DNA of 64,000 nucleotides from NCBI GenBank assembly GCA_018303805.1, contig JAGVXL010000001.1, forward strand, positions 506,164-570,163, in the 5' to 3' direction. The stretch's first letter is position 1; each line of letters begins with the position of its first letter. Position numbers and translations under genes: made by a program. Origin of the DNA: Candidatus Pacearchaeota archaeon (GTDB lineage Archaea; Nanobdellota; Nanobdellia; Pacearchaeales; DTIR01). Below are positions 49,613 through 57,723 of this stretch, piece after piece. The notes beneath the pieces were generated by a model. It was not told where the DNA came from. It did not search any database and saw only the letters and a list, made by a program, of their open reading frames with translations.

Positions 49613-50800
49613 ATGGAAAAAGAGGGCTTTTACAGGGCAGTCACAACCCTTGTAGGCACAATTATTGGTGCAGGTATTCTTGCAATTCCTTATGCCATCA
49701 TGAAGGCAGGATTTCTTACAGGCCTGCTGAATCTTGTTGTGTTAAGCGCGGCTTCTTTTCTTATCTACCTGTTCACAGGAGAGATTGTGCTAAGGACAGA
49801 GGGAAATCACCAGTTGCCGGGCTATGCAGAAAAATATCTTGGCAAGGTTGGTAGCATGCTGATGGCTTTCGCAATGATATTTGGGATATATGGCGCGTTA
49901 GTCTCATATATCATTGGTGTCGGCAGAACTTTTACAGAGCTTTTTGGCATGCAGGATGTTTTATTGAATTTTCTCGGCTTTTCCTTCCAGTTCAATTTTA
50001 TTTTCAGCATCCTTTTCTTCATTTTTGTCTCTTTTGTTGTATATATCGGCTTGAAAATGGTCGGAAAATCAGAATTGATAATGAGCTCATTAATAATAAT
50101 CGCCCTGCTGTCAGTATCATTGCTTTCATTGCCACGGCTTGAGATTTCAAATCTTATGTCATTCAACTTTAGCAGGATTCTAACTCCTTATGGGGTGATA
50201 CTTTTTGCGCTTTCAGGGGCTGTTGCTGTCCCTGAAATGAAAGAGCAGCTGCAAAAGAACAGGAAACTGCTGAAAAAAGCAATTCTTGCCGGGGTTTTAA
50301 TTCCAGTTATTCTCTACTTTTTGTTTTCCCTGTCAGTTGTCGGTGCATGCGGCTCAGGAACAACAGAGATTGCAACTATCTGCCTGGGTCAGAAATTTGG
50401 CACCGTTGTCTTTTTGCTTGGCAATCTTTTTGCAATATTTGCGATGTCAACGAGCTTTATGAGCTTAGGGCTTGGACTGAAGGAGATGTATCATTATGAT
50501 TACAAGAAGAATGAAAATTTGTCTTGGGTTTATGCCTGCCTTGTTCCTTTTTTGTTCTATTTCCTGATATTATTTTTTGTTCAGGGAGAAATATTTTTTA
50601 AGACGATAGCAATCTCAGGCGGCATAACAATGACTTTAGAGGGCATTCTGATTGTGTTGATGCATAACAGGGCAAAAAAATATGGTGACAGGAAACCAGA
50701 ATACAGAATCAGGGCAAGTAAGATTATTTCTGCAATTTTAATCTTAATATTTTTACTTGGATTGCTTTATACCCTGCTGGAATTTGCTGGTGTGATTTAA
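49613..50800 (+). CDS. Amino acid permease (aromatic amino acid/APC family)
   Basis: GTIIGAGILAIP, about 11 TM segments, TSFMSLG. Confidence 0.88.
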   Translation: MEKEGFYRAVTTLVGTIIGAGILAIPYAIMKAGFLTGLLNLVVLSAASFLIYLFTGEIVLRTEGNHQLPGYAEKYLGKVGSMLMAFAMIFGIYGALVSYIIGVGRTFTELFGMQDVLLNFLGFSFQFNFIFSILFFIFVSFVVYIGLKMVGKSELIMSSLIIIALLSVSLLSLPRLEISNLMSFNFSRILTPYGVILFALSGAVAVPEMKEQLQKNRKLLKKAILAGVLIPVILYFLFSLSVVGACGSGTTEIATICLGQKFGTVVFLLGNLFAIFAMSTSFMSLGLGLKEMYHYDYKKNENLSWVYACLVPFLFYFLILFFVQGEIFFKTIAISGGITMTLEGILIVLMHNRAKKYGDRKPEYRIRASKIISAILILIFLLGLLYTLLEFAGVI

Positions 50801-50816
50801 ACTTAATCTAACATTG

Positions 50817-52193
50817 TTATTTTAATAATTTGAGCAATATTTCCCTTGCAATCCTGCTGTCTGCCCTGCCTTTTGTTGCAGCCATAACCTGCCCCAGCAA
50901 AAAGTCAAGCGCTTTTTTCTCCCCTGATTTAAAATCCTGGACTGCCTTTGGATTATTTTTCAGGATATCAACGCAGATTTTTTCAAGTTCCTCCTTGTCC
51001 TCAATCCTTGCTGTCTCTTTCAGTTTTTCCTTTGGATTGAATGATTTAGGGATGAACCTGTTCAGAAGTTTTTTTGCAGCAGTTTCAGTTATCTCCTTTT
51101 TTTCAATCATTTTGAGCAGCTCTGAAAAATGCCCGGGATTTATACTCACATCCTCAAGCTGCTTTTTATTCCAGTTTAAAATCCTCAGCAATTCAATTGT
51201 AACCCAGTATGAAGCAAGTTTCTTGTCAATGCCAAAATTCAGCACTTGCTCGTAAAATTCTGAAATTGCCCTGTTCTGGCTCAGCACTTCTGCAGTGTCA
51301 GTTTCAATCTTGTGCTGCTTCACAAATCTGTTTGTTTTTGCATGAGGAAGTTCAGGCAGTTCTTTCTCAATCTTAGCAGCGAGGTTTTTGTCATGAAGCA
51401 TGATTGGCAAGTCAGGGTCTGGAATAAATCTGTAGTCCTCTGCCTGCTCTTTTTCTCTCATTAAAATTGTTATGCCATTTGCCTCGTCAAAAGCCCTCGT
51501 TTCCCTTTTTACAGTATTTCCCTTTTTTGTTTCAGCTTCCTGCCTTGCAGTCTCGTACTCTACTGCTTTCATTATACTGTTCAATGAGTTGATATTTTTT
51601 ATCTCAACTCTTTCTCCAGAAGTAGAGATGTTTACATCTGCCTTTATGCCTGCATCCTTTTCTAGTGCTTTTATGTATCCAAGTGTGATTATCAATTTTT
51701 TCAGCCACTCTCTAACCTCTTTAGAGGATTTAAAGTCCGGCTCAGTAACAATTTCCACAAGAGGCAAGCCGCATCTGTTGTAATCAACTTCTCCTGTATC
51801 AGGATTCCATGCTGCAGGGTCTTCCTCAAGATGCACTTCCCTTATGCGTATGCCTAAGAATTCTCCTCCAGAGCCGACAGGTACACTATAAGAGCCAGAG
51901 ATTGTATCCTGATAACCTTTTGGCAGGTCAGGCCAGTCATAGTGCTTTCTCTGCCATATCAATGCCTTCTCGCTTAATTTGCATTCAAGCATTAATGCTA
52001 TTGCAATTGATTCCTTTATCGCCTCTTCATTAGGAAGCATCGGCTTGCTTCCGGGATATCCACAACAAATTGGGCAAATGTTAGTATTAGGTTTAGTATT
52101 TCCTTTTTTGTAATTAGTAGGACATCTACAAAAAAGTTTTTCTTTTGTTACTAAATATCCATGAACTTCTAATCCTATCTTAACATTTGACAT
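50817..52193 (-). CDS. gatB: Asp/Glu-tRNA amidotransferase subunit B
   Basis: KIGLEVH, CPICCGYPGSKP, HLEED, DYNR.G.PLVEIVTEPD, EIKNINS, DYRFIPDPDLP. Confidence 0.95.
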   Translation of the reverse strand: MSNVKIGLEVHGYLVTKEKLFCRCPTNYKKGNTKPNTNICPICCGYPGSKPMLPNEEAIKESIAIALMLECKLSEKALIWQRKHYDWPDLPKGYQDTISGSYSVPVGSGGEFLGIRIREVHLEEDPAAWNPDTGEVDYNRCGLPLVEIVTEPDFKSSKEVREWLKKLIITLGYIKALEKDAGIKADVNISTSGERVEIKNINSLNSIMKAVEYETARQEAETKKGNTVKRETRAFDEANGITILMREKEQAEDYRFIPDPDLPIMLHDKNLAAKIEKELPELPHAKTNRFVKQHKIETDTAEVLSQNRAISEFYEQVLNFGIDKKLASYWVTIELLRILNWNKKQLEDVSINPGHFSELLKMIEKKEITETAAKKLLNRFIPKSFNPKEKLKETARIEDKEELEKICVDILKNNPKAVQDFKSGEKKALDFLLGQVMAATKGRADSRIAREILLKLLK

Positions 52194-53193
52194 TTTTCAA
52201 GGCTATTTGGTTTAGTTTATTTATTTTTTCTGGATGATTGGAGGATATAACATTAAAAAATCTTCTTATAGTCTCTCGTTTGGATGTTCTTATCCTAAAG
52301 AACTCTTGATTTTGAGTTCTCTTGGGTTCACTTAGATTTATTCCATTTTCGTTGAGTTTATCTCTAACCCAAATAAGTATTTCACATGGAAGATCACTTG
52401 AGGCTTGCCCAATATCTAACCAAGGATTTTTCTTGGTTTCTCCTACCCCCCCTTCAGCATCAAAAAATCCTCTTATAAAAGAAAACTGTAAAGGCAGCTC
52501 AGAACTTTTTATAATCCTTGGGACTTCAATATCTCTAACCTTCTTCCCAGATTTTAGATTTAGCACATTTTTAAAAAAAAGATAGACTGGTTTAGAACAA
52601 ATTCTTAATGTGTACCATTTTTTTGATTCCTTTGTTTGAAAGTAGATATTTCCCTTAATGTTAAATTGTTTATATAAAATTTCATTTATCTTTTCTAAAA
52701 ATTCTTTATTACCCTCATAAAAATATATGGAATGTTCTTGAAAATCTCCTACATTTTCTTTTTTAAGGTGCCCATCTCCTTGGAAAAAACCAATTATATA
52801 AGCTAAATCCTTATTTAATTCTCTTGGTAATATTATTTTTCTTTGACTATTTTGGCTATATCCTTCATTACCCATGTAAATAAAATCCCATCTCTTTGTG
52901 AATTCTTTTTCACTTTTTTTACAATTCTTTTTCCAGAATCTTAATAAAACATAAATTTTTGAGATGGGAATAGGATTGTATCCCCTTACCCAAGAATAAA
53001 GTGTTTGATAGGGGATATTTAACTCTTTTGATAATTTCTTAATTGTTTTCTTATTATATAATTTTTTAATATCTGAATAAATTGATTTTATAGTTGGAGA
53101 AACACCATGCAAACAAATGTTTTTCCTTTTTTCCTTATTTTCTGCTTTTTCTATTTCTGGAAGGTAATTTTTAAGTTTCAATTTTAACTCCAA
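52180..53193 (-). CDS. Free-standing LAGLIDADG homing endonuclease with N-terminal HTH
   Basis: Two LAGLIDADG motifs (AYIIGFFQGDG, SFIRGFFDAEG); AT-rich codons; stop overlaps the gatB start by 14 nt. Confidence 0.9.
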   Translation of the reverse strand: MELKLKLKNYLPEIEKAENKEKRKNICLHGVSPTIKSIYSDIKKLYNKKTIKKLSKELNIPYQTLYSWVRGYNPIPISKIYVLLRFWKKNCKKSEKEFTKRWDFIYMGNEGYSQNSQRKIILPRELNKDLAYIIGFFQGDGHLKKENVGDFQEHSIYFYEGNKEFLEKINEILYKQFNIKGNIYFQTKESKKWYTLRICSKPVYLFFKNVLNLKSGKKVRDIEVPRIIKSSELPLQFSFIRGFFDAEGGVGETKKNPWLDIGQASSDLPCEILIWVRDKLNENGINLSEPKRTQNQEFFRIRTSKRETIRRFFNVISSNHPEKINKLNQIALKNVKC

Positions 53194-53362
53194 GTTTTCT
53201 GATTATTTCTATAGTATTCCAAGAATCTTTAATTTTCTTTTTAACATTATTTTCAAATTTTGATACAGCTGGTTGAGAAAGATTAAGTTTTTCTGCTATC
53301 TTTTTCTGCTTTAATCCTTTTTTTCTTAATTTTATAATCTCGATTTCTCTTTCTGTTAACAT
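53171..53362 (-). CDS. Small HTH protein (LuxR/sigma-r4-like)
   Basis: LTEREIEIIKL..KGLKQKKIAEKLNLSQPAVS. Confidence 0.85.
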   Translation of the reverse strand: MLTEREIEIIKLRKKGLKQKKIAEKLNLSQPAVSKFENNVKKKIKDSWNTIEIIRKLGVKIET

Positions 53363-53382
53363 AACTATTATAGGTTATATTA

Positions 53383-53401
53383 GATATATAAAACTTTCGG
53401 T
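53383..53401 (-). promoter_or_regulatory. BRE/TATA of the inserted cassette
   Basis: ACCGAAAGTTTTATATATC about 21 nt before the HTH ATG. Confidence 0.65.
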
Positions 53402-53402
53402 T

Positions 53403-53447
53403 TTAACAAGAAATATACCCATGTATCTCCAAGCCGATTTTTACCAT
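53403..53447 (-). pseudogene. gatB: Stranded 5' fragment of gatB
   Basis: MVKIGLEIHGYISC* vs intact MSNVKIGLEVHGYL; TATA-like GAAGATTTTTTAAAAT about 20 nt upstream (53467-53482). Confidence 0.8.
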
Positions 53448-53534
53448 AACAGGCCAAGCAAAAGGGATTTTAAAAAATCTTCCCTCTGAAAGAGATTAAA
53501 CCTTAGCAAGAAATCTGTCTGCTTCAGCTGATAG

Positions 53535-53681
53535 ATGAATTGTGTTAAATTATCTAAAAAGAAAGAAGGTAAGATTTATCATAAGTATGTTATTGTTTTA
53601 AAGAAAGGTTTAGTTGAAAAGGCAGGGTTCAAGGAAAGAGAGTATCTTTCAGAACACGAAGGGGGGAGGGCTATTGGATAG
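53535..53681 (+). CDS. Short AbrB-like ORF, possibly degenerate
   Basis: MNCVKLSKKKEGKIYHKYVIVLKKGLVEKAGFKE (48 aa, below track cut-off). Confidence 0.4.
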   Translation: MNCVKLSKKKEGKIYHKYVIVLKKGLVEKAGFKEREYLSEHEGGRAIG

Positions 53682-53899
53682 GGGAAGCCGAGAGATTTGA
53701 GAAGGGAGCAAGCCAGAGGGCTGATATCCTGAGAAAGCAGCGGAAGAAAAGGTAGATTTTTTCTTATCTCGTGTATTCCGTTTAGGTTGCAGGGCTTGGT
53801 TCTTGGGTTTTCGAGCCAGCAGGCGAGAAAACAGGTGGGGAAAGGGTCAAAAAGCTAAAAACAGAAAGGTTTAAATAATGTTTAAACATTGTTTAAACT

Positions 53900-54673
53900 A
53901 TGATAGAGACAGGAGTTATTAAAAATATAAGAAGATGGGGCAATTCTGCTGGGGTTCTGCTGCCTAGAGAGTGGATAGGAAAAGAAGCAAGAATAATCCT
54001 GGTGGACAGGAGCTTGGAGATAAGGAAAGAGGTTTTTGATATTCTCTCTGGCTATTTGGAAGACATTTTAGGGATATATCTCACAGGAAGCTATGCGAGA
54101 AATGAGCAAACTGAAGAGTCAGACATAGACATAATTGCTATTTCAAACAAAACAAAAAAAGAGATTATTTCAGGGAGATATCATGTTTCTATTGCAACCT
54201 TGGAGAGCATCAAAAAGACTTTAGAAACCAACCCTGAACTGATTCTGCCCAGGATAGATGAAGCCAAAATAATATTGAACAGCTCTCTGCTGGATGAATT
54301 GAAAAGCAAGAAAATAGGCAGAAATTCATTTAAAGGGTTTATAGGGGACAGCAGGAGAATAATCAGGATAAACAGGGGATTTATAGAACTGGATAAAGAA
54401 CAGGGATTTAAAGATTTAGATTCTGTTAATGTGATTTATTCAATTATTTTAAGGTTAAGGGGGGTTTTTCTTATTAACAAACTTCTTAAAAAAGAAAAAT
54501 ATAATAAGAAAGATTTTCTTCAATGGATAGAAAAAGAAGCTGGCAAAGAAGCAGAGAAAGTTTATGATACCTATCAACAAATAAGGGATGACAAGAAAGT
54601 TAAAGCAGAGATACAGATAGAAATCGCTGAAAGATTATTGAATAAACTGGAAAAAGAGGTAGATAAGCTATGA
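53900..54673 (+). CDS. Minimal nucleotidyltransferase with N-terminal AbrB-like segment
   Basis: RRWGNSAGVLLP; GSYAR..EESDIDI. Confidence 0.85.
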   Translation: MIETGVIKNIRRWGNSAGVLLPREWIGKEARIILVDRSLEIRKEVFDILSGYLEDILGIYLTGSYARNEQTEESDIDIIAISNKTKKEIISGRYHVSIATLESIKKTLETNPELILPRIDEAKIILNSSLLDELKSKKIGRNSFKGFIGDSRRIIRINRGFIELDKEQGFKDLDSVNVIYSIILRLRGVFLINKLLKKEKYNKKDFLQWIEKEAGKEAEKVYDTYQQIRDDKKVKAEIQIEIAERLLNKLEKEVDKL

Positions 54674-54852
54674 AAAGAAAAAAACGGCTGCAAAAAGGGA
54701 TTAAATCAATCAAAGAGCAGATAAATCTTCATGTTGAGAAAAAGGAGATTGCAAAAAAAAAGGGCAAAGTTGAATTGGCAGGATATTATAATAAGGAAAT
54801 AGAAAAATTAGAAGAAACAAAAGAGAAAAAAGAAAAGCAGATGGAAAGGTAG
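54670..54852 (+). CDS. Small basic helical protein
   Basis: ATGA overlap with the MNT gene. Confidence 0.6.
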   Translation: MKRKKRLQKGIKSIKEQINLHVEKKEIAKKKGKVELAGYYNKEIEKLEETKEKKEKQMER

Positions 54853-55007
54853 ATTCTGTATATTTTGAACGAGGTTTTTGATTTCTGTATTCTGTCTAAT
54901 CTGCAGGGCCGGGTTCTGAGTTTTTTAGCTGAGGAAGGGGGCTAAAAGACGGATTATGTAGACAAAAAATAGAAAGATTTAAATATGTAGTCACCTAATA
55001 TAATCAG

Positions 55008-55943
55008 ATGTATATAGAAAAAAGAAGAGTTAAAGGAAGGGTGAAGAACTATCTTGCCCATTCATTCAGGGAAGGCGGCAAAGTTCACAAGATAAGAAAA
55101 TATCTTGGGGCAGATTTGAATTCTCAAATCTTGAAAGAAAGAGTGGAAAAAGCAAGACAACTGATTCTTGAAGAGATAAATCAGTACAAAATAATAAAAG
55201 ACCCGCTGCAAACGCCTTTATCAAACGAGGAAATAGAATTAGTTGAGAACTTAGAAGCCGTAGGGGAGTTGAAGGTATTTCATCTGTCTAAGAGACAGTG
55301 GGAGCTATTTTCAGAACTGTTTACATACAGCACAAATGCCATTGAAGGAAGCGAATTAGATCGCCTAGAAGTCAAGGAAATTTTAGAGAAAGACAAATGG
55401 CCTAAAAAGTCAAAAGAAGATATTGCTGAAGCTTATGGTGTAAATGAGGCAATCCAATATATAAGAAACACAAAAGAGCATTTATCATTGAACTTGATAA
55501 AAGAGCTTCACGAAATTGTTTTTAGAAATTCAAGGAATTTTGCAGGTTATTTTAGGATGCGTGGAGAGGAGGTTGTTGTTAGAGATGGCTTGGGAAATGT
55601 TATTCACCATGGAGCCCCACAATCGCGGGTTCTCACGCTGCTGAACGAGTTAGTTGAATGGTATAGCAAGAATAGAAAAAAATATCCTGCATTGATTCTT
55701 GCTGCAGTTGTTCATAATCAGTTCGAGAATATACATCCATTCAGAGACGGTAATGGGAGAGTTGGCAGGCTGCTGCTGAATAACATACTGATTAAAAATG
55801 GATTGCCGCCACTAAATATTGATTTTAACAATAGAAAAGACTATTATCATGCACTGCAAGAGTATGAAAAGAATCATAATTTAAAACCAACAATTGACCT
55901 TCTTTTGAAGGAGTACAGGGCGTTAAGAAGGAGATTGAGGTGA
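55008..55943 (+). CDS. Fic/Doc family protein
   Basis: HPFRDGNGRVGR and STNAIEGS. Confidence 0.93.
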   Translation: MYIEKRRVKGRVKNYLAHSFREGGKVHKIRKYLGADLNSQILKERVEKARQLILEEINQYKIIKDPLQTPLSNEEIELVENLEAVGELKVFHLSKRQWELFSELFTYSTNAIEGSELDRLEVKEILEKDKWPKKSKEDIAEAYGVNEAIQYIRNTKEHLSLNLIKELHEIVFRNSRNFAGYFRMRGEEVVVRDGLGNVIHHGAPQSRVLTLLNELVEWYSKNRKKYPALILAAVVHNQFENIHPFRDGNGRVGRLLLNNILIKNGLPPLNIDFNNRKDYYHALQEYEKNHNLKPTIDLLLKEYRALRRRLR

Positions 55944-56074
55944 CTACATTCTGCAATTTTGTGGTCACCTAATCAGGCATCCTGTTTGATGTACAGGGCT
56001 TTGTTCTGCCTGTTTTTTGGTTTAGGGGTGTGAGAGCTCATAACATTTATAAATTCTATTTAATATTTGATAAT

Positions 56075-56257
56075 ATGGGAGCAAGACCCCCTGAAGCAAA
56101 AAAGAGAAGAATGGAATACAACATTGACCAGGAAATTTATGATAATTTTGTCAAGGCATGCAGCAAAAAAGGGCTTGCGCCGCAGGTTTTGATTGAGCAG
56201 TTTATGAAGAGGTTTAATCAGACAGGGCAGGCTCAGTTTTCTAGTCTCTATCCCTGA
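56075..56257 (+). CDS. Small RHH-like protein
   Basis: MEYNIDQEIYDNFVKAC..APQVLIEQFM; ATG 56075. Confidence 0.55.
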   Translation: MGARPPEAKKRRMEYNIDQEIYDNFVKACSKKGLAPQVLIEQFMKRFNQTGQAQFSSLYP

Positions 56258-56421
56258 TTTCTGCATGGCGGGGTGTGGCAGCAATGGGTTTTTTGGCAGA
56301 AAAAGGGAAGGTATCGGAAATCTCAGAAATCTTTTGATTTCTGATGGGGCGATAGGGTTAAAAAGATTACAGAAAACTGCAAAACAGATAAACTTAAAAT
56401 TAACAGATTTTTAAAAAGAGT

Positions 56422-56745
56422 ATGACTTATGCAGTTTACACAACTGAAAGTTTTGAAAAAGAGATTGAAAAGATTTCTGCATTTGAAAGAGGGATAATAC
56501 AGAAGATGTTTCTGCAGCTTAAAGAAAATCCTTATATTGGCGGCCAAATAAGATACAGGTTTTTCCGTGAGAAGAAAATAAAAGATAAAAGAATTTACTA
56601 TCTGATTTATGATGATTTAAAAGCAGTTCTTGTTGTTGCTTTTGGGGGAAAGAAGGCTCAGCAGGAAACAATTGACGAGACTGTAAAATATTTTCCAGAG
56701 TTTAGAAGATATCTTGAGAATCTTTTAAAAAGTGAAAGAAGATAA
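56422..56745 (+). CDS. RelE-like toxin
   Basis: YTTESFEKE..LKENPYIG..REK...RIYYLIY. Confidence 0.75.
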   Translation: MTYAVYTTESFEKEIEKISAFERGIIQKMFLQLKENPYIGGQIRYRFFREKKIKDKRIYYLIYDDLKAVLVVAFGGKKAQQETIDETVKYFPEFRRYLENLLKSERR

Positions 56746-56752
56746 AGAAGGA

Positions 56753-56965
56753 CTAAGCAACTCTCTTTATTCTCCCTTTTTTAACGTCTTCTAAACTGTT
56801 TTTGAACTGTTTTATCAGGTCAACATCTATTTTTTTTAAGATTACCAAATCGTTCATTTTTTCTACAGCTAAAATTGAGCCCTTGTTTATTCCAAGCTCG
56901 TTTCTTATTCTTAGCGGTATAACTACCTGCCCCTTTGAGCTTATTTTTGTTATTTCGGTTTCCAT
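56753..56965 (-). CDS. AbrB/MazE/SpoVT antitoxin
   Basis: TKISSKGQVVIPLRIRNELGI. Confidence 0.9.
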   Translation of the reverse strand: METEITKISSKGQVVIPLRIRNELGINKGSILAVEKMNDLVILKKIDVDLIKQFKNSLEDVKKGRIKRVA

Positions 56966-57065
56966 TTTGCACTCCTATGTAAGAAAGTAAGATTTTCCTA
57001 TTTTTAAAGGTTTTGGTTTTCTAATCCCTATCCTTGATTTCTTTCTGGGCTTGGTTCTTGGGATT

Positions 57066-57317
57066 TTATCTCTCATAAATATTCCTTCTATGCCCGACTT
57101 TAGTGACTTTTATTGTTTTTAAAGAAATATCAACATCAACTATTGCCCTGTAATTCCCGATTCTAAGCTTAAAGCCATCAATTTCTGCCAAATGCTCAAG
57201 AAACCTAAAAGGCTCTTCCTTGCATAACTGAAGCTTGTTCCAGATTCTTTCCTTTACTTCCCTGCCAAGCTTATTCAAATCATGCAAAGCCTTCTTTTCA
57301 AAAATAAGATGGTACAT
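57066..57317 (-). CDS. RelE/StbE toxin
   Basis: KLRIGNYRAI..VGHRRNIY. Confidence 0.9.
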   Translation of the reverse strand: MYHLIFEKKALHDLNKLGREVKERIWNKLQLCKEEPFRFLEHLAEIDGFKLRIGNYRAIVDVDISLKTIKVTKVGHRRNIYER

Positions 57318-57320
57318 GCC

Positions 57321-57557
57321 TTAAAGCCCAAGAATTTTCTTTGCCTCTTCTTCTGTGTAGAACTCGCCTTTTTTAATCCTTTCTCTGGCTTCCTTGATTT
57401 CAAGAATAGTCTTTTGGCTTAATTTGGGCTCTTTCTCGCACATTTTTGCAAGGTATAGCAGCTTTCTGACTAGCTCATCATAGCTCTCGCTCTTGTATTG
57501 CCTGAACCCGTCAAGTTCCACTTTTGTTGCAGGATTTAATTTTATTGTTGTTTCCAT
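57321..57557 (-). CDS. Cognate antitoxin of RelE
   Basis: ETTIKLN..ESYDELVRKL..GEFYTEEEAKKILGL; 3 nt upstream of the toxin. Confidence 0.8.
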   Translation of the reverse strand: METTIKLNPATKVELDGFRQYKSESYDELVRKLLYLAKMCEKEPKLSQKTILEIKEARERIKKGEFYTEEEAKKILGL

Positions 57558-57723
57558 ATACTAAGGTATACTTAAGTATACTATTTAAAGCTTTCGGTGA
57601 TTATTTTTATCCCTATCCCTGATTTAATCCTGGGGGGTGGCTGCAGTGGGGTTCTGACAGGGAAAGCGGTGGCGAAACTTTAAATATTGGGGTTGTTCTT
57701 AAAAAAATAATCAGTTAATAGAT

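Follow-up and report, generated by a model that had tools for sequence, protein, structure and literature searches.

A probable LAGLIDADG homing endonuclease cassette that supplies a foreign 5' end to gatB in a Pacearchaeota archaeon

This study concerns the gatB gene in a 64,000-nucleotide stretch of DNA (the window) from a Candidatus Pacearchaeota archaeon (contig JAGVXL010000001.1, positions 506,164 to 570,163). A segment of about 1.35 kb on the minus strand of the window (53407..52056) is very probably a mobile homing endonuclease cassette that lies inside the coding sequence of gatB. As judged by sequence comparison, the cassette would consist of its own promoter, an optional helix-turn-helix (HTH) gene, a gene for a single-chain LAGLIDADG endonuclease, and foreign, recoded codons 1-46 that are fused in frame to host codons 47-458. 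An earlier note on this DNA had proposed that gatB was invaded without splicing by an element carrying a replacement 5' end. Comparison with relatives strongly supported this proposal: a native stub and a foreign working 5' end were found, the arrangement recurred in at least 14 clusters, the stubs had a common end, and no intron RNA family or Hint domain was hit at the locus.

Results

All of the minus-strand elements that the earlier note had listed in order were present where it had placed them. The native gatB promoter, a TFIIB recognition element (BRE)/TATA-like sequence (AAGATTTTTTAAAATC, 53481..53466), recurs without a mismatch as a 16-mer in G001, a cassette-free genome of the same genus, with equal spacing to the gatB ATG. 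In the window it now lies ahead of a 14-codon 5' stub of gatB (53447..53403; ATG-VKIGLEIHGYISC-TAA, read as MVKIGLEIHGYISC-stop) that aligns with MAKIGLEIHGYISS of G001. A second BRE/TATA element (AAAGTTTTATATATC, 53397..53383), the presumed cassette promoter, marks the left end of the mobile unit and is followed by a leader with an imperfect palindrome (TAATATAACCTATAATAG, 53382..53363) that may serve the HTH protein as operator. The HTH gene (53362..53171, 63 amino acids) is of the GerE/LuxR type (Pfam GerE 2.5e-9, HTH_3 1.6e-7) and is optional cargo. The LAGLIDADG gene (53181..52180, 333 amino acids, TTG start; Pfam LAGLIDADG_3 2.1e-15, in two stretches) carries within its last codons the TATA-like sequence AAAATAAATAAA (52227..52216, -34..-23 from the gatB ATG), a candidate private promoter of gatB. 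The complete gatB gene (52193..50817, 458 amino acids; Pfam GatB_N 7e-74, GatB_Yqey 5e-37) starts 14 nucleotides ahead of the nuclease stop, so the two genes overlap.

Within gatB, the AT-rich replacement 5' end (codons 1-46, 52193..52056) was recognized as foreign by its G+C content at third codon positions (GC3) and its mosaic identity, and carries the signatures Val10 and Cys44. It ends in what is predicted to be the immune form of the homing site (codons 41-46, 52073..52056; CCA ATT TGT / TGT GGA TAT, with the boundary after the first TGT). The native gatB body (codons 47-458, 52055..50817) follows. The G+C content of the cassette region (52050-53400) was 0.21-0.29 versus about 0.40 in both flanks.

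The stub and the promoter upstream of it (53486..53390) were compared with the gatB promoter and first 13 codons of G001, in which gatB is uninterrupted and has no endonuclease or HTH gene upstream. This comparison gave 73 identities in 95 positions (77%) and a score of 94, whereas the best score among 300 shuffles was 28. The aligned block takes in the identical 16-nucleotide TATA element and the lineage-specific residues YIS, and homology stops at about 53408, where the cassette promoter comes next. Judging from this alignment, the native 5' end of gatB survives in the window as the stub.

Upstream gatB fragments were found in nine of the 14 lineages with readable context, the window included. 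The longest were those of L141 (42 codons, ending ...NICPICT), L063 (41 codons, ending ...NICPPC) and L032, which is genome G305 (about 38 recognizable codons, ending ...NVCPIC). Shorter fragments remain in L222/223 (about 34-37 codons), L232/233 (36 codons), L221 (about 17-21 codons), L227 (14 codons) and the window (14 codons), and only the last 18 nucleotides of the stub (AATATCTGCCCAATGTGT) are left in L033, which is genome G372. The stubs of L032, L063, L033 and L141 end no more than one codon apart, three of them after the TGY of CPxC and that of L141 one codon further (CPICT). Because the longest stubs and the 18-nucleotide relic share this end, we infer that the codon boundary after the second Cys (Cys43) of the zinc-knuckle CPxC, that is codon 43/44, was the original insertion and cut site, and that deletions later shortened the other stubs. 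The earlier note had listed the fragment as the first 12 or so codons of a gatB. Codon 12-14 is not the insertion point, since the stubs of relatives reach codon 43-44 and the stub of the window is a decayed leftover.

At every locus the stub and the working copy were only 47-71% identical in DNA, and more than half of the codons for identical residues differed synonymously. This divergence excludes a recent local duplication as the origin of the stub. In the window, as had been claimed, the two N-termini share the same peptide core, and five of seven codons for identical residues differ synonymously between stub and working copy. G305 provides an independent second case. G405 (IGLEIHAYLVTREKLFC...), the nearest relative without a cassette, is similar to the 43-codon stub of G305 (IGLEIHAYVVTREKLFC...) and not to its working copy (IGLEVHGYIKTKEKLFC...); the sequences compared were HAYVVTREKLFC for the stub, HAYLVTREKLFC for G405 and HGYIKTKEKLFC for the working copy.

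The foreign origin of the working 5' end was assessed with a codon alignment of the window gatB against G001 and against G004, which belongs to another genus of the same family. Identity to G001 was 58% over codons 15-46 (54/93) versus 77% over the body (932/1212; Fisher p 1.4e-4). Identity to G004 showed the opposite pattern, with 96% over codons 15-46 (92/96) versus 72% over the body (Fisher p 5e-9). A maximum-likelihood tree of the body (codon 56 onward) placed the window as sister to G001, with a Shimodaira-Hasegawa-like approximate likelihood ratio test (SH-aLRT) value of 98. The GC3 break was located at codon 46, and sequence like that of G001 returned within about 10 nucleotides past this codon, which puts the mosaic boundary at 52055-52045. 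The AT-richness that the earlier note had seen in the first 45 or so codons was borne out, with GC3 of 0.13, 0.07 and 0.13 in successive 15-codon windows versus 0.38 for the whole gene. The identity switch, the body tree and the GC3 break together argue that the first 46 codons were imported along with the cassette and that the rest of gatB is native.

A protein search with a cut-off of E <= 1e-20 returned 34 endonuclease clusters with 51-71% identity. No further protein passed this cut-off, and the next-best LAGLIDADG genes in genome and locus scans were no more than about 39% identical. Readable contexts came from genomes and metagenome contigs of several projects and sources, and in all 14 clusters that had one the endonuclease gene ends at, or overlaps, the gatB start codon. 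The cassette was carried by three of the 401 sampled genomes of the order. Cassette alleles are scattered on the gatB body tree, which requires at least 6-8 changes of state. The site is thus polymorphic for presence and absence at one homologous position, with an uninterrupted gatB in G001 and most relatives. A second copy of the endonuclease gene was sought in the host genome, and none was found. A multi-copy, transposon-like element is ruled out by this single copy.

The start of the nuclease gene is most likely the TTG at 53181, which overlaps the end of the HTH gene by 11 nucleotides and agrees with the N-termini of relatives (MKLxNYL). Both LAGLIDADG motifs are intact (motif 1 YIIGFFQGDGHL, motif 2 FIRGFFDAEGGVG), 32 family members share the catalytic residues Asp136 and Glu243 without exception, and there are no frameshifts. 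An AlphaFold model built from the family alignment reached a predicted local distance difference test (pLDDT) score of 90.6 and a predicted template modelling (pTM) score of 0.90, and has the pseudo-dimeric alpha-beta-beta-alpha-beta-beta-alpha fold in one chain. In Foldseek searches its core (residues about 125-315) superposed on I-DmoI with a target-normalised TM score of 0.70-0.75 and matched archaeal intein endonuclease domains with E values of 1e-9 to 5.6e-11; a PDB profile search agreed with relatives of the I-DmoI/intein type. The first 125 or so residues form a helical extension with an HTH (a weak N-terminal HTH in Pfam), which presumably adds DNA contacts. The invariant catalytic Asp and Glu, the lack of frameshifts and the confident I-DmoI-like model make the enzyme look active. 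LAGLIDADG endonucleases cleave a long (about 20 bp), specific target and leave 4-nucleotide 3' overhangs.

The target of this enzyme can be predicted from the common stub end together with a Thr/Cys polymorphism at codon 44. The susceptible form would be CCN ATH TGY / ACN GGN CAR, with the boundary after TGY. The site of the cassette-free G001 type reads ...ATATGCCCTGTATGC before the boundary and ACAGCGCAGCCGGG... after it (also written ...AGAATATGCCCTGTATGCACAGCGCAGCCGGGCAGC...), the consensus site is AATATCTGCCCAATATGCACAGGACAGCCAGGA, and the allele of the window itself is AACATTTGCCCAATTTGTTGTGGATATCCCGGA. Codon 44 is Cys (TGY) in 13 of 15 cassette alleles versus two of 23 cassette-free ones, and Thr (ACN) in 19 of the 23 cassette-free relatives. 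Codon 46 in cassette alleles is Met or Tyr instead of Gln. This two- to three-base change at the junction is an obvious candidate for cleavage immunity. The earlier note had held that the recoded end makes the allele resistant to cleavage; what stood of this claim is the association of Thr44 with cassette-free and Cys44 with cassette alleles, and cleavage itself is presumed.

The CPxCCGxPG pattern occurred in eight of the 401 genomes of the order, a count that misses G372 because its sequence is CPTCCG. Wherever a stub still has the motif (seven stubs), it reads GLEIH, and the working copy at that locus reads GLEVH. These shared derived characters (Cys44, the CC pattern and GLEVH) argue that the replacement ends descend from one another together with the nuclease gene. 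The codon concerned, codon 10, lies at 52166-52164 in the working copy of the window and at 53423-53421 in the stub. L224 and L225/L226 have an identical endonuclease yet differ at gatB codon 10.

Three candidate promoters for gatB are present in the window: the native one before the stub, that of the cassette, and AAAATAAATAAA in the 3' codons of the nuclease gene. The last is conserved in nearly all cassettes, and its spacing from the start codon equals that of the native TATA boxes in gatB genes without a cassette. Because the conserved peptide EKINKF is encoded by these same nucleotides, a role as promoter is only putative. The cassette promoter reads AAAG(N)TTTATATA in L221, L223, L224, L228, L033 and L063, where its distance to the first cassette gene is also conserved.

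A 63-amino-acid HTH gene stands directly before the endonuclease gene in five lineages (the window, L221, L222/223, L224-226 and L228), with 63-81% identity. In these lineages the nuclease starts with TTG, 11 nucleotides inside the HTH gene. A palindrome, CTATATAAcTTATATAG, lies between the cassette TATA and the HTH start and is perfect in L224 (about 1250-1270), L228 (about 2805-2825) and L223 and imperfect in the window (53363-53382). The position of the palindrome before the HTH start and the TTG inside the HTH gene suggest that autorepression by the HTH protein and translational coupling may keep the nuclease low.

Six lineages have no HTH gene (L032, L063, L033, L229, L231 and L062), and in these the nuclease starts with ATG. 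All six keep a left-half copy of the presumed target 0-12 nucleotides from the promoter, forward in L032, L063 and L033 and inverted in L229, L231 and L062, and all five HTH-bearing cassettes have lost it. The half-target copy could reflect chance and shared ancestry, or it could be a decoy operator for the nuclease itself. A decoy operator is known for the nuclease I-TevI. The inverted copies, 18-24 nucleotides of the stub/junction sequence NICPIC/KD, are pressed to the TATA (L229, 2917-2940; L231, 2947-2973; L062, about 2945-2970), lie 27-29 nucleotides before the endonuclease ATG and occur in one HTH-less subclade. They may be decoy operators for the nuclease or the product of a small inversion. 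A reading of these copies as the terminal inverted repeats of a transposon was rejected; they are real and conserved in position, but only one subclade has them and they do not agree with repair by strand annealing.

Other cassettes hold different cargo. L141 (2402-2997) and L232 (1546-2126) have, between stub and endonuclease gene, an opposite-strand open reading frame (ORF) for a membrane protein of 68-76 amino acids and a conserved 88-amino-acid ORF that begins MISxKLFxMREKVKQELQH.... L227 has a gene for a 242-amino-acid TrmB-type regulator that overlaps the start of the endonuclease gene.

A splicing apparatus of the kind expected of an intron or intein was not found. Rfam intron families (group I, group II and other RNA) gave no match in 50500-54000 at E <= 1, though bulge-helix-bulge motifs were not searched for specifically, and the Pfam scan had no hit to the intein (Hint) domain. 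The N-terminus of the downstream gatB is complete and duplicates the stub. The intein reading was rejected because of the missing Hint hit, the stop codon after the stub and the separate start of gatB.

Discussion

The model proposed here suggests that the endonuclease would cut a cassette-free gatB at the zinc-knuckle sequence CPIC / TGQPG, at codon 43/44, and that the break would be repaired from a cassette-bearing allele. On the right side the repair crossover falls a few bases beyond the presumed cut, as the mosaic boundary at 52055-52045 shows. On the left side the first 43 codons of the host would be pushed upstream and left as a dead stub behind the native promoter, where the stub would decay by deletion, with 14 codons remaining here. 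Splicing of RNA or protein would be needless, as the element brings a start codon and a full N-terminus. The changes Thr44 to Cys and Gln46 to Tyr or Met at the cut most likely make the invaded allele immune. The working gatB could be expressed from the cassette operon, by read-through from the native promoter, or from the TATA-like box in the last endonuclease codons.

The earlier note had also suggested an addiction mechanism, in which gatB is captive to a promoter controlled by the HTH protein. This is possible but unsupported. Six cassette lineages lack the HTH gene, and since the TATA-like box lies at the normal distance from the gatB ATG and the native promoter is still upstream, gatB need not depend on the HTH-controlled promoter.

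Several observations weigh against the cassette model. Across the family, the 46 codons of the 5' end tracked the gatB body (Spearman 0.45) and not the endonuclease (0.01) in a Mantel-like rank correlation over 55 pairs. Co-transfer of the 5' end is thus seen clearly in the window and in G305 and was not demonstrated beyond them. Either transfers occur mostly among close relatives, or 42 conserved residues hold too little signal. Because the family-wide test gave no signal, the claim of a foreign 5' end draws on the two loci that have close cassette-free relatives, together with the Val10 and Cys44 signatures. L141 (CTICTGQPG) and L227 (CPVCTGAPG) keep Thr44 despite carrying the cassette, so Cys44 is not the sole route to immunity, and these two alleles would be immune, if at all, through other changes. 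Additionally, L224-226, L228 and L062 have no forward stub, which equally fits an ancestral free-standing gene upstream of gatB.

That last observation bears on a rival explanation in which a free-standing endonuclease of the phage seg/mob type, located in the intergenic region, cuts an empty gatB, with codons 1-46 as the co-conversion tract and the stub as an accident of illegitimate repair. The missing stubs, the tendency of the 5' end to follow the host body rather than the endonuclease, and a right crossover near the presumed cut, as in classic co-conversion, all speak for it. However, nine of the 14 lineages have a stub, and the longest stubs share one codon boundary as their end, as expected if the cassette was inserted at the cut site and the stub acted as left homology arm; in L033 just the final 18 nucleotides of the stub are left. 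We therefore regard the free-standing type as unlikely, although the two explanations overlap functionally, since in both the nuclease gene and the replacement 5' end move together.

It is far less likely that the LAGLIDADG and HTH genes are a domesticated, vertically inherited regulator of gatB or a maturase-like factor, with the odd 5' end produced by an unrelated gene conversion. The tightly conserved gene order and overlapping stop and start would suit such a role, as would the N-terminal HTH domain of the nuclease. A domesticated gene would not be expected to be as patchy as this one, which shows at least 6-8 changes on the gatB tree and presence in three of 401 genomes, nor does the role fit the invariant catalytic residues, the dead stubs and the same-genus relative without the cassette. 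Still less credence is given to an assembly or binning artefact in which an AT-rich foreign fragment was misjoined into the contig. The data come from a metagenome assembly and composition does shift sharply at both borders, but at least 14 independent assemblies, drawn from several projects and sources, show the same architecture, the right border lies within an open, full-length gatB frame, and the host genome is a single 575-kb contig.

The cassette model also makes sense of alleles that have the Cys-type site with neither endonuclease nor stub, which were found in G004, G002, G116, G078, G214 and G357. G004 is 96% identical to the cassette segment of the window over codons 15-46 but only 70% identical over codons 5-14. 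This pattern could have arisen either by deletion of a cassette through recombination between stub and working copy, or by repair from a cassette allele without copying of the nuclease. The endonuclease-free Cys-type alleles are probable scars of the cassette. These six alleles, and the cassette-type codons 15-46 of G004, suggest that the element may be losable without killing gatB, which weighs against addiction.

The closest parallel is found in the mobile open reading frames (mORFs) of fungal mitochondria. The published description (PMC3630166 and the work cited in it) reports substitute gene termini in atp6 of Allomyces macrogynus, in atp6, atp9, cox2 and nad3 of Glomus sp., in atp9 of Rhizopus and in cox2 of Mortierella. 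These mORFs carry a foreign C-terminal segment, and the displaced native C-terminus persists downstream, unexpressed, as a second copy like that of close relatives; inserted and native ends share about 60-80% DNA identity and encode nearly identical protein (PMC3630166). Both systems place a LAGLIDADG (or, in mORFs, GIY-YIG) gene in a conserved protein gene without an intron, fuse a foreign end in frame and keep the native end nearby, so that the hallmark of mORFs, a foreign in-frame end plus a displaced native end like that of relatives, is seen in gatB in mirror-image geometry. However, mORFs replace the 3' end, use the host promoter and are often in frame with the host gene, whereas the gatB cassette replaces the 5' end of a gene in an archaeal chromosome and supplies a promoter and start codon, and in half of the lineages a regulator. 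Since the part replaced is the 5' end, a promoter and a start codon have to come with the element. Neither homology to the mitochondrial mORF enzymes nor an organellar setting was found, and the nearest solved relatives are the archaeal I-DmoI and intein domains. By these comparisons the gatB cassette works like an mORF but is not a member by descent, and kinship of the enzymes is at the level of the superfamily.

Free-standing endonucleases of T4-like phages and cyanophages (SegB, SegF, SegG, MobE and F-CphI) perform what is called intronless homing (PMC2330249, PMC2790892, PMC6083498, PMC2988022). They resemble the gatB cassette in that a nuclease gene lies next to the conserved gene that is cut, with no intron or intein, and in co-conversion and immunity through cut-site polymorphism. 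They differ from it in being of the GIY-YIG, HNH or EndoVII type, in lying between genes without a duplicated end and in spreading during co-infection, whereas the gatB enzyme is a LAGLIDADG protein encoded inside an ORF and leaves a stub. I-DmoI, which is encoded in an rRNA intron, and the intein domains (PI-PfuI, Tli VMA) share with the gatB enzyme its fold, catalytic motifs and archaeal hosts. In those systems, however, the host gene is spared by splicing of RNA or protein, and the 125-residue N-terminal HTH extension is particular to the gatB enzyme. The only paper found on Woesearchaeota and LAGLIDADG enzymes (PMC6125680) deals with archaeal group I introns. The literature search found no paper relevantly linking gatB with a homing endonuclease, and nothing on free-standing LAGLIDADG genes in archaeal protein genes or on this arrangement in archaea.

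What appears to be new is the substitute-terminus strategy in an archaeal chromosome and on the 5' side; so far it has been known from fungal mitochondria and for 3' ends only. To our knowledge, homing endonucleases have been thought to persist in essential genes only by means of self-splicing introns or inteins, or else between genes. The gatB cassette would be a third solution in a cellular chromosome, in which the front of the gene is exchanged for one that the element brings together with the signals for its expression. It offers a testable model of how a target gene turns into a mosaic of lineages, and, for a compact single-chain LAGLIDADG enzyme, it predicts a natural 20-bp target together with the immune variant that belongs to it. 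It is also a warning that gatB, and perhaps other DPANN marker genes, can hold horizontally replaced segments and that automatic annotation misses the stubs.

It is conceivable, if somewhat less than probable, that DPANN archaea host a general, undescribed class of splice-free, gene-invading cassettes. Each would combine a LAGLIDADG gene, a promoter, a device for self-regulation (an HTH repressor with palindromic operator or, in HTH-less lineages, a half-site decoy at the TATA) and a recoded 5' end of the essential gene that is cut. If this is true, the transcription of essential genes (here gatB) would fall partly to such cassettes, and they would drive allele replacement across genera, leave immune scars of the Cys44 type after loss, and serve as landing pads for cargo such as the HTH gene, the TrmB gene, or the 88-amino-acid ORF with the membrane ORF. 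If the regulator, operator and decoy are real, the cassette would be a small natural gene drive with built-in dosage control. The gatB cassette as a whole is of interest for work on homing endonucleases, DPANN mobile elements and meganuclease engineering.

Additional observations

The possibility that G004 holds a cassette split over two contigs was rejected, because the 68 nucleotides before its gatB are not the 3' end of an endonuclease gene. A split cassette is also countered by the lack of any family member in the G004 assembly and by an HTH homologue that lies elsewhere with no endonuclease gene after it. This homologue (L258, that is G004:C46, 1501-1734) is a stand-alone gene of 77 amino acids with 62% identity to the cassette HTH protein. 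It directly follows a large surface-protein gene and is near neither gatB nor an endonuclease gene, and after it are two copies of AATATCCTACAGGGAACA about 30 nucleotides apart (L258, 1800-1870). At the start of the G004 contig C22 (L004, 1-68) a 20-nucleotide direct repeat, AAAAAAGAAAGAATCATGCA, occurs twice before gatB and the contig ends there. The assembly may have broken here at a site that is polymorphic or repeated.

Upstream of the gatB locus, positions 53535-57560 of the window are not syntenic with the same-genus genome. Inspected by eye and without family searches, this stretch looks rich in small genes that resemble toxin-antitoxin and nucleotidyltransferase genes, with ORFs for an AbrB-like protein of 48 amino acids, a 257-amino-acid protein that resembles an AbrB-like domain plus a nucleotidyltransferase, a Fic-like protein of 311 amino acids and several proteins of 70-107 amino acids. 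It looks like a variable island.

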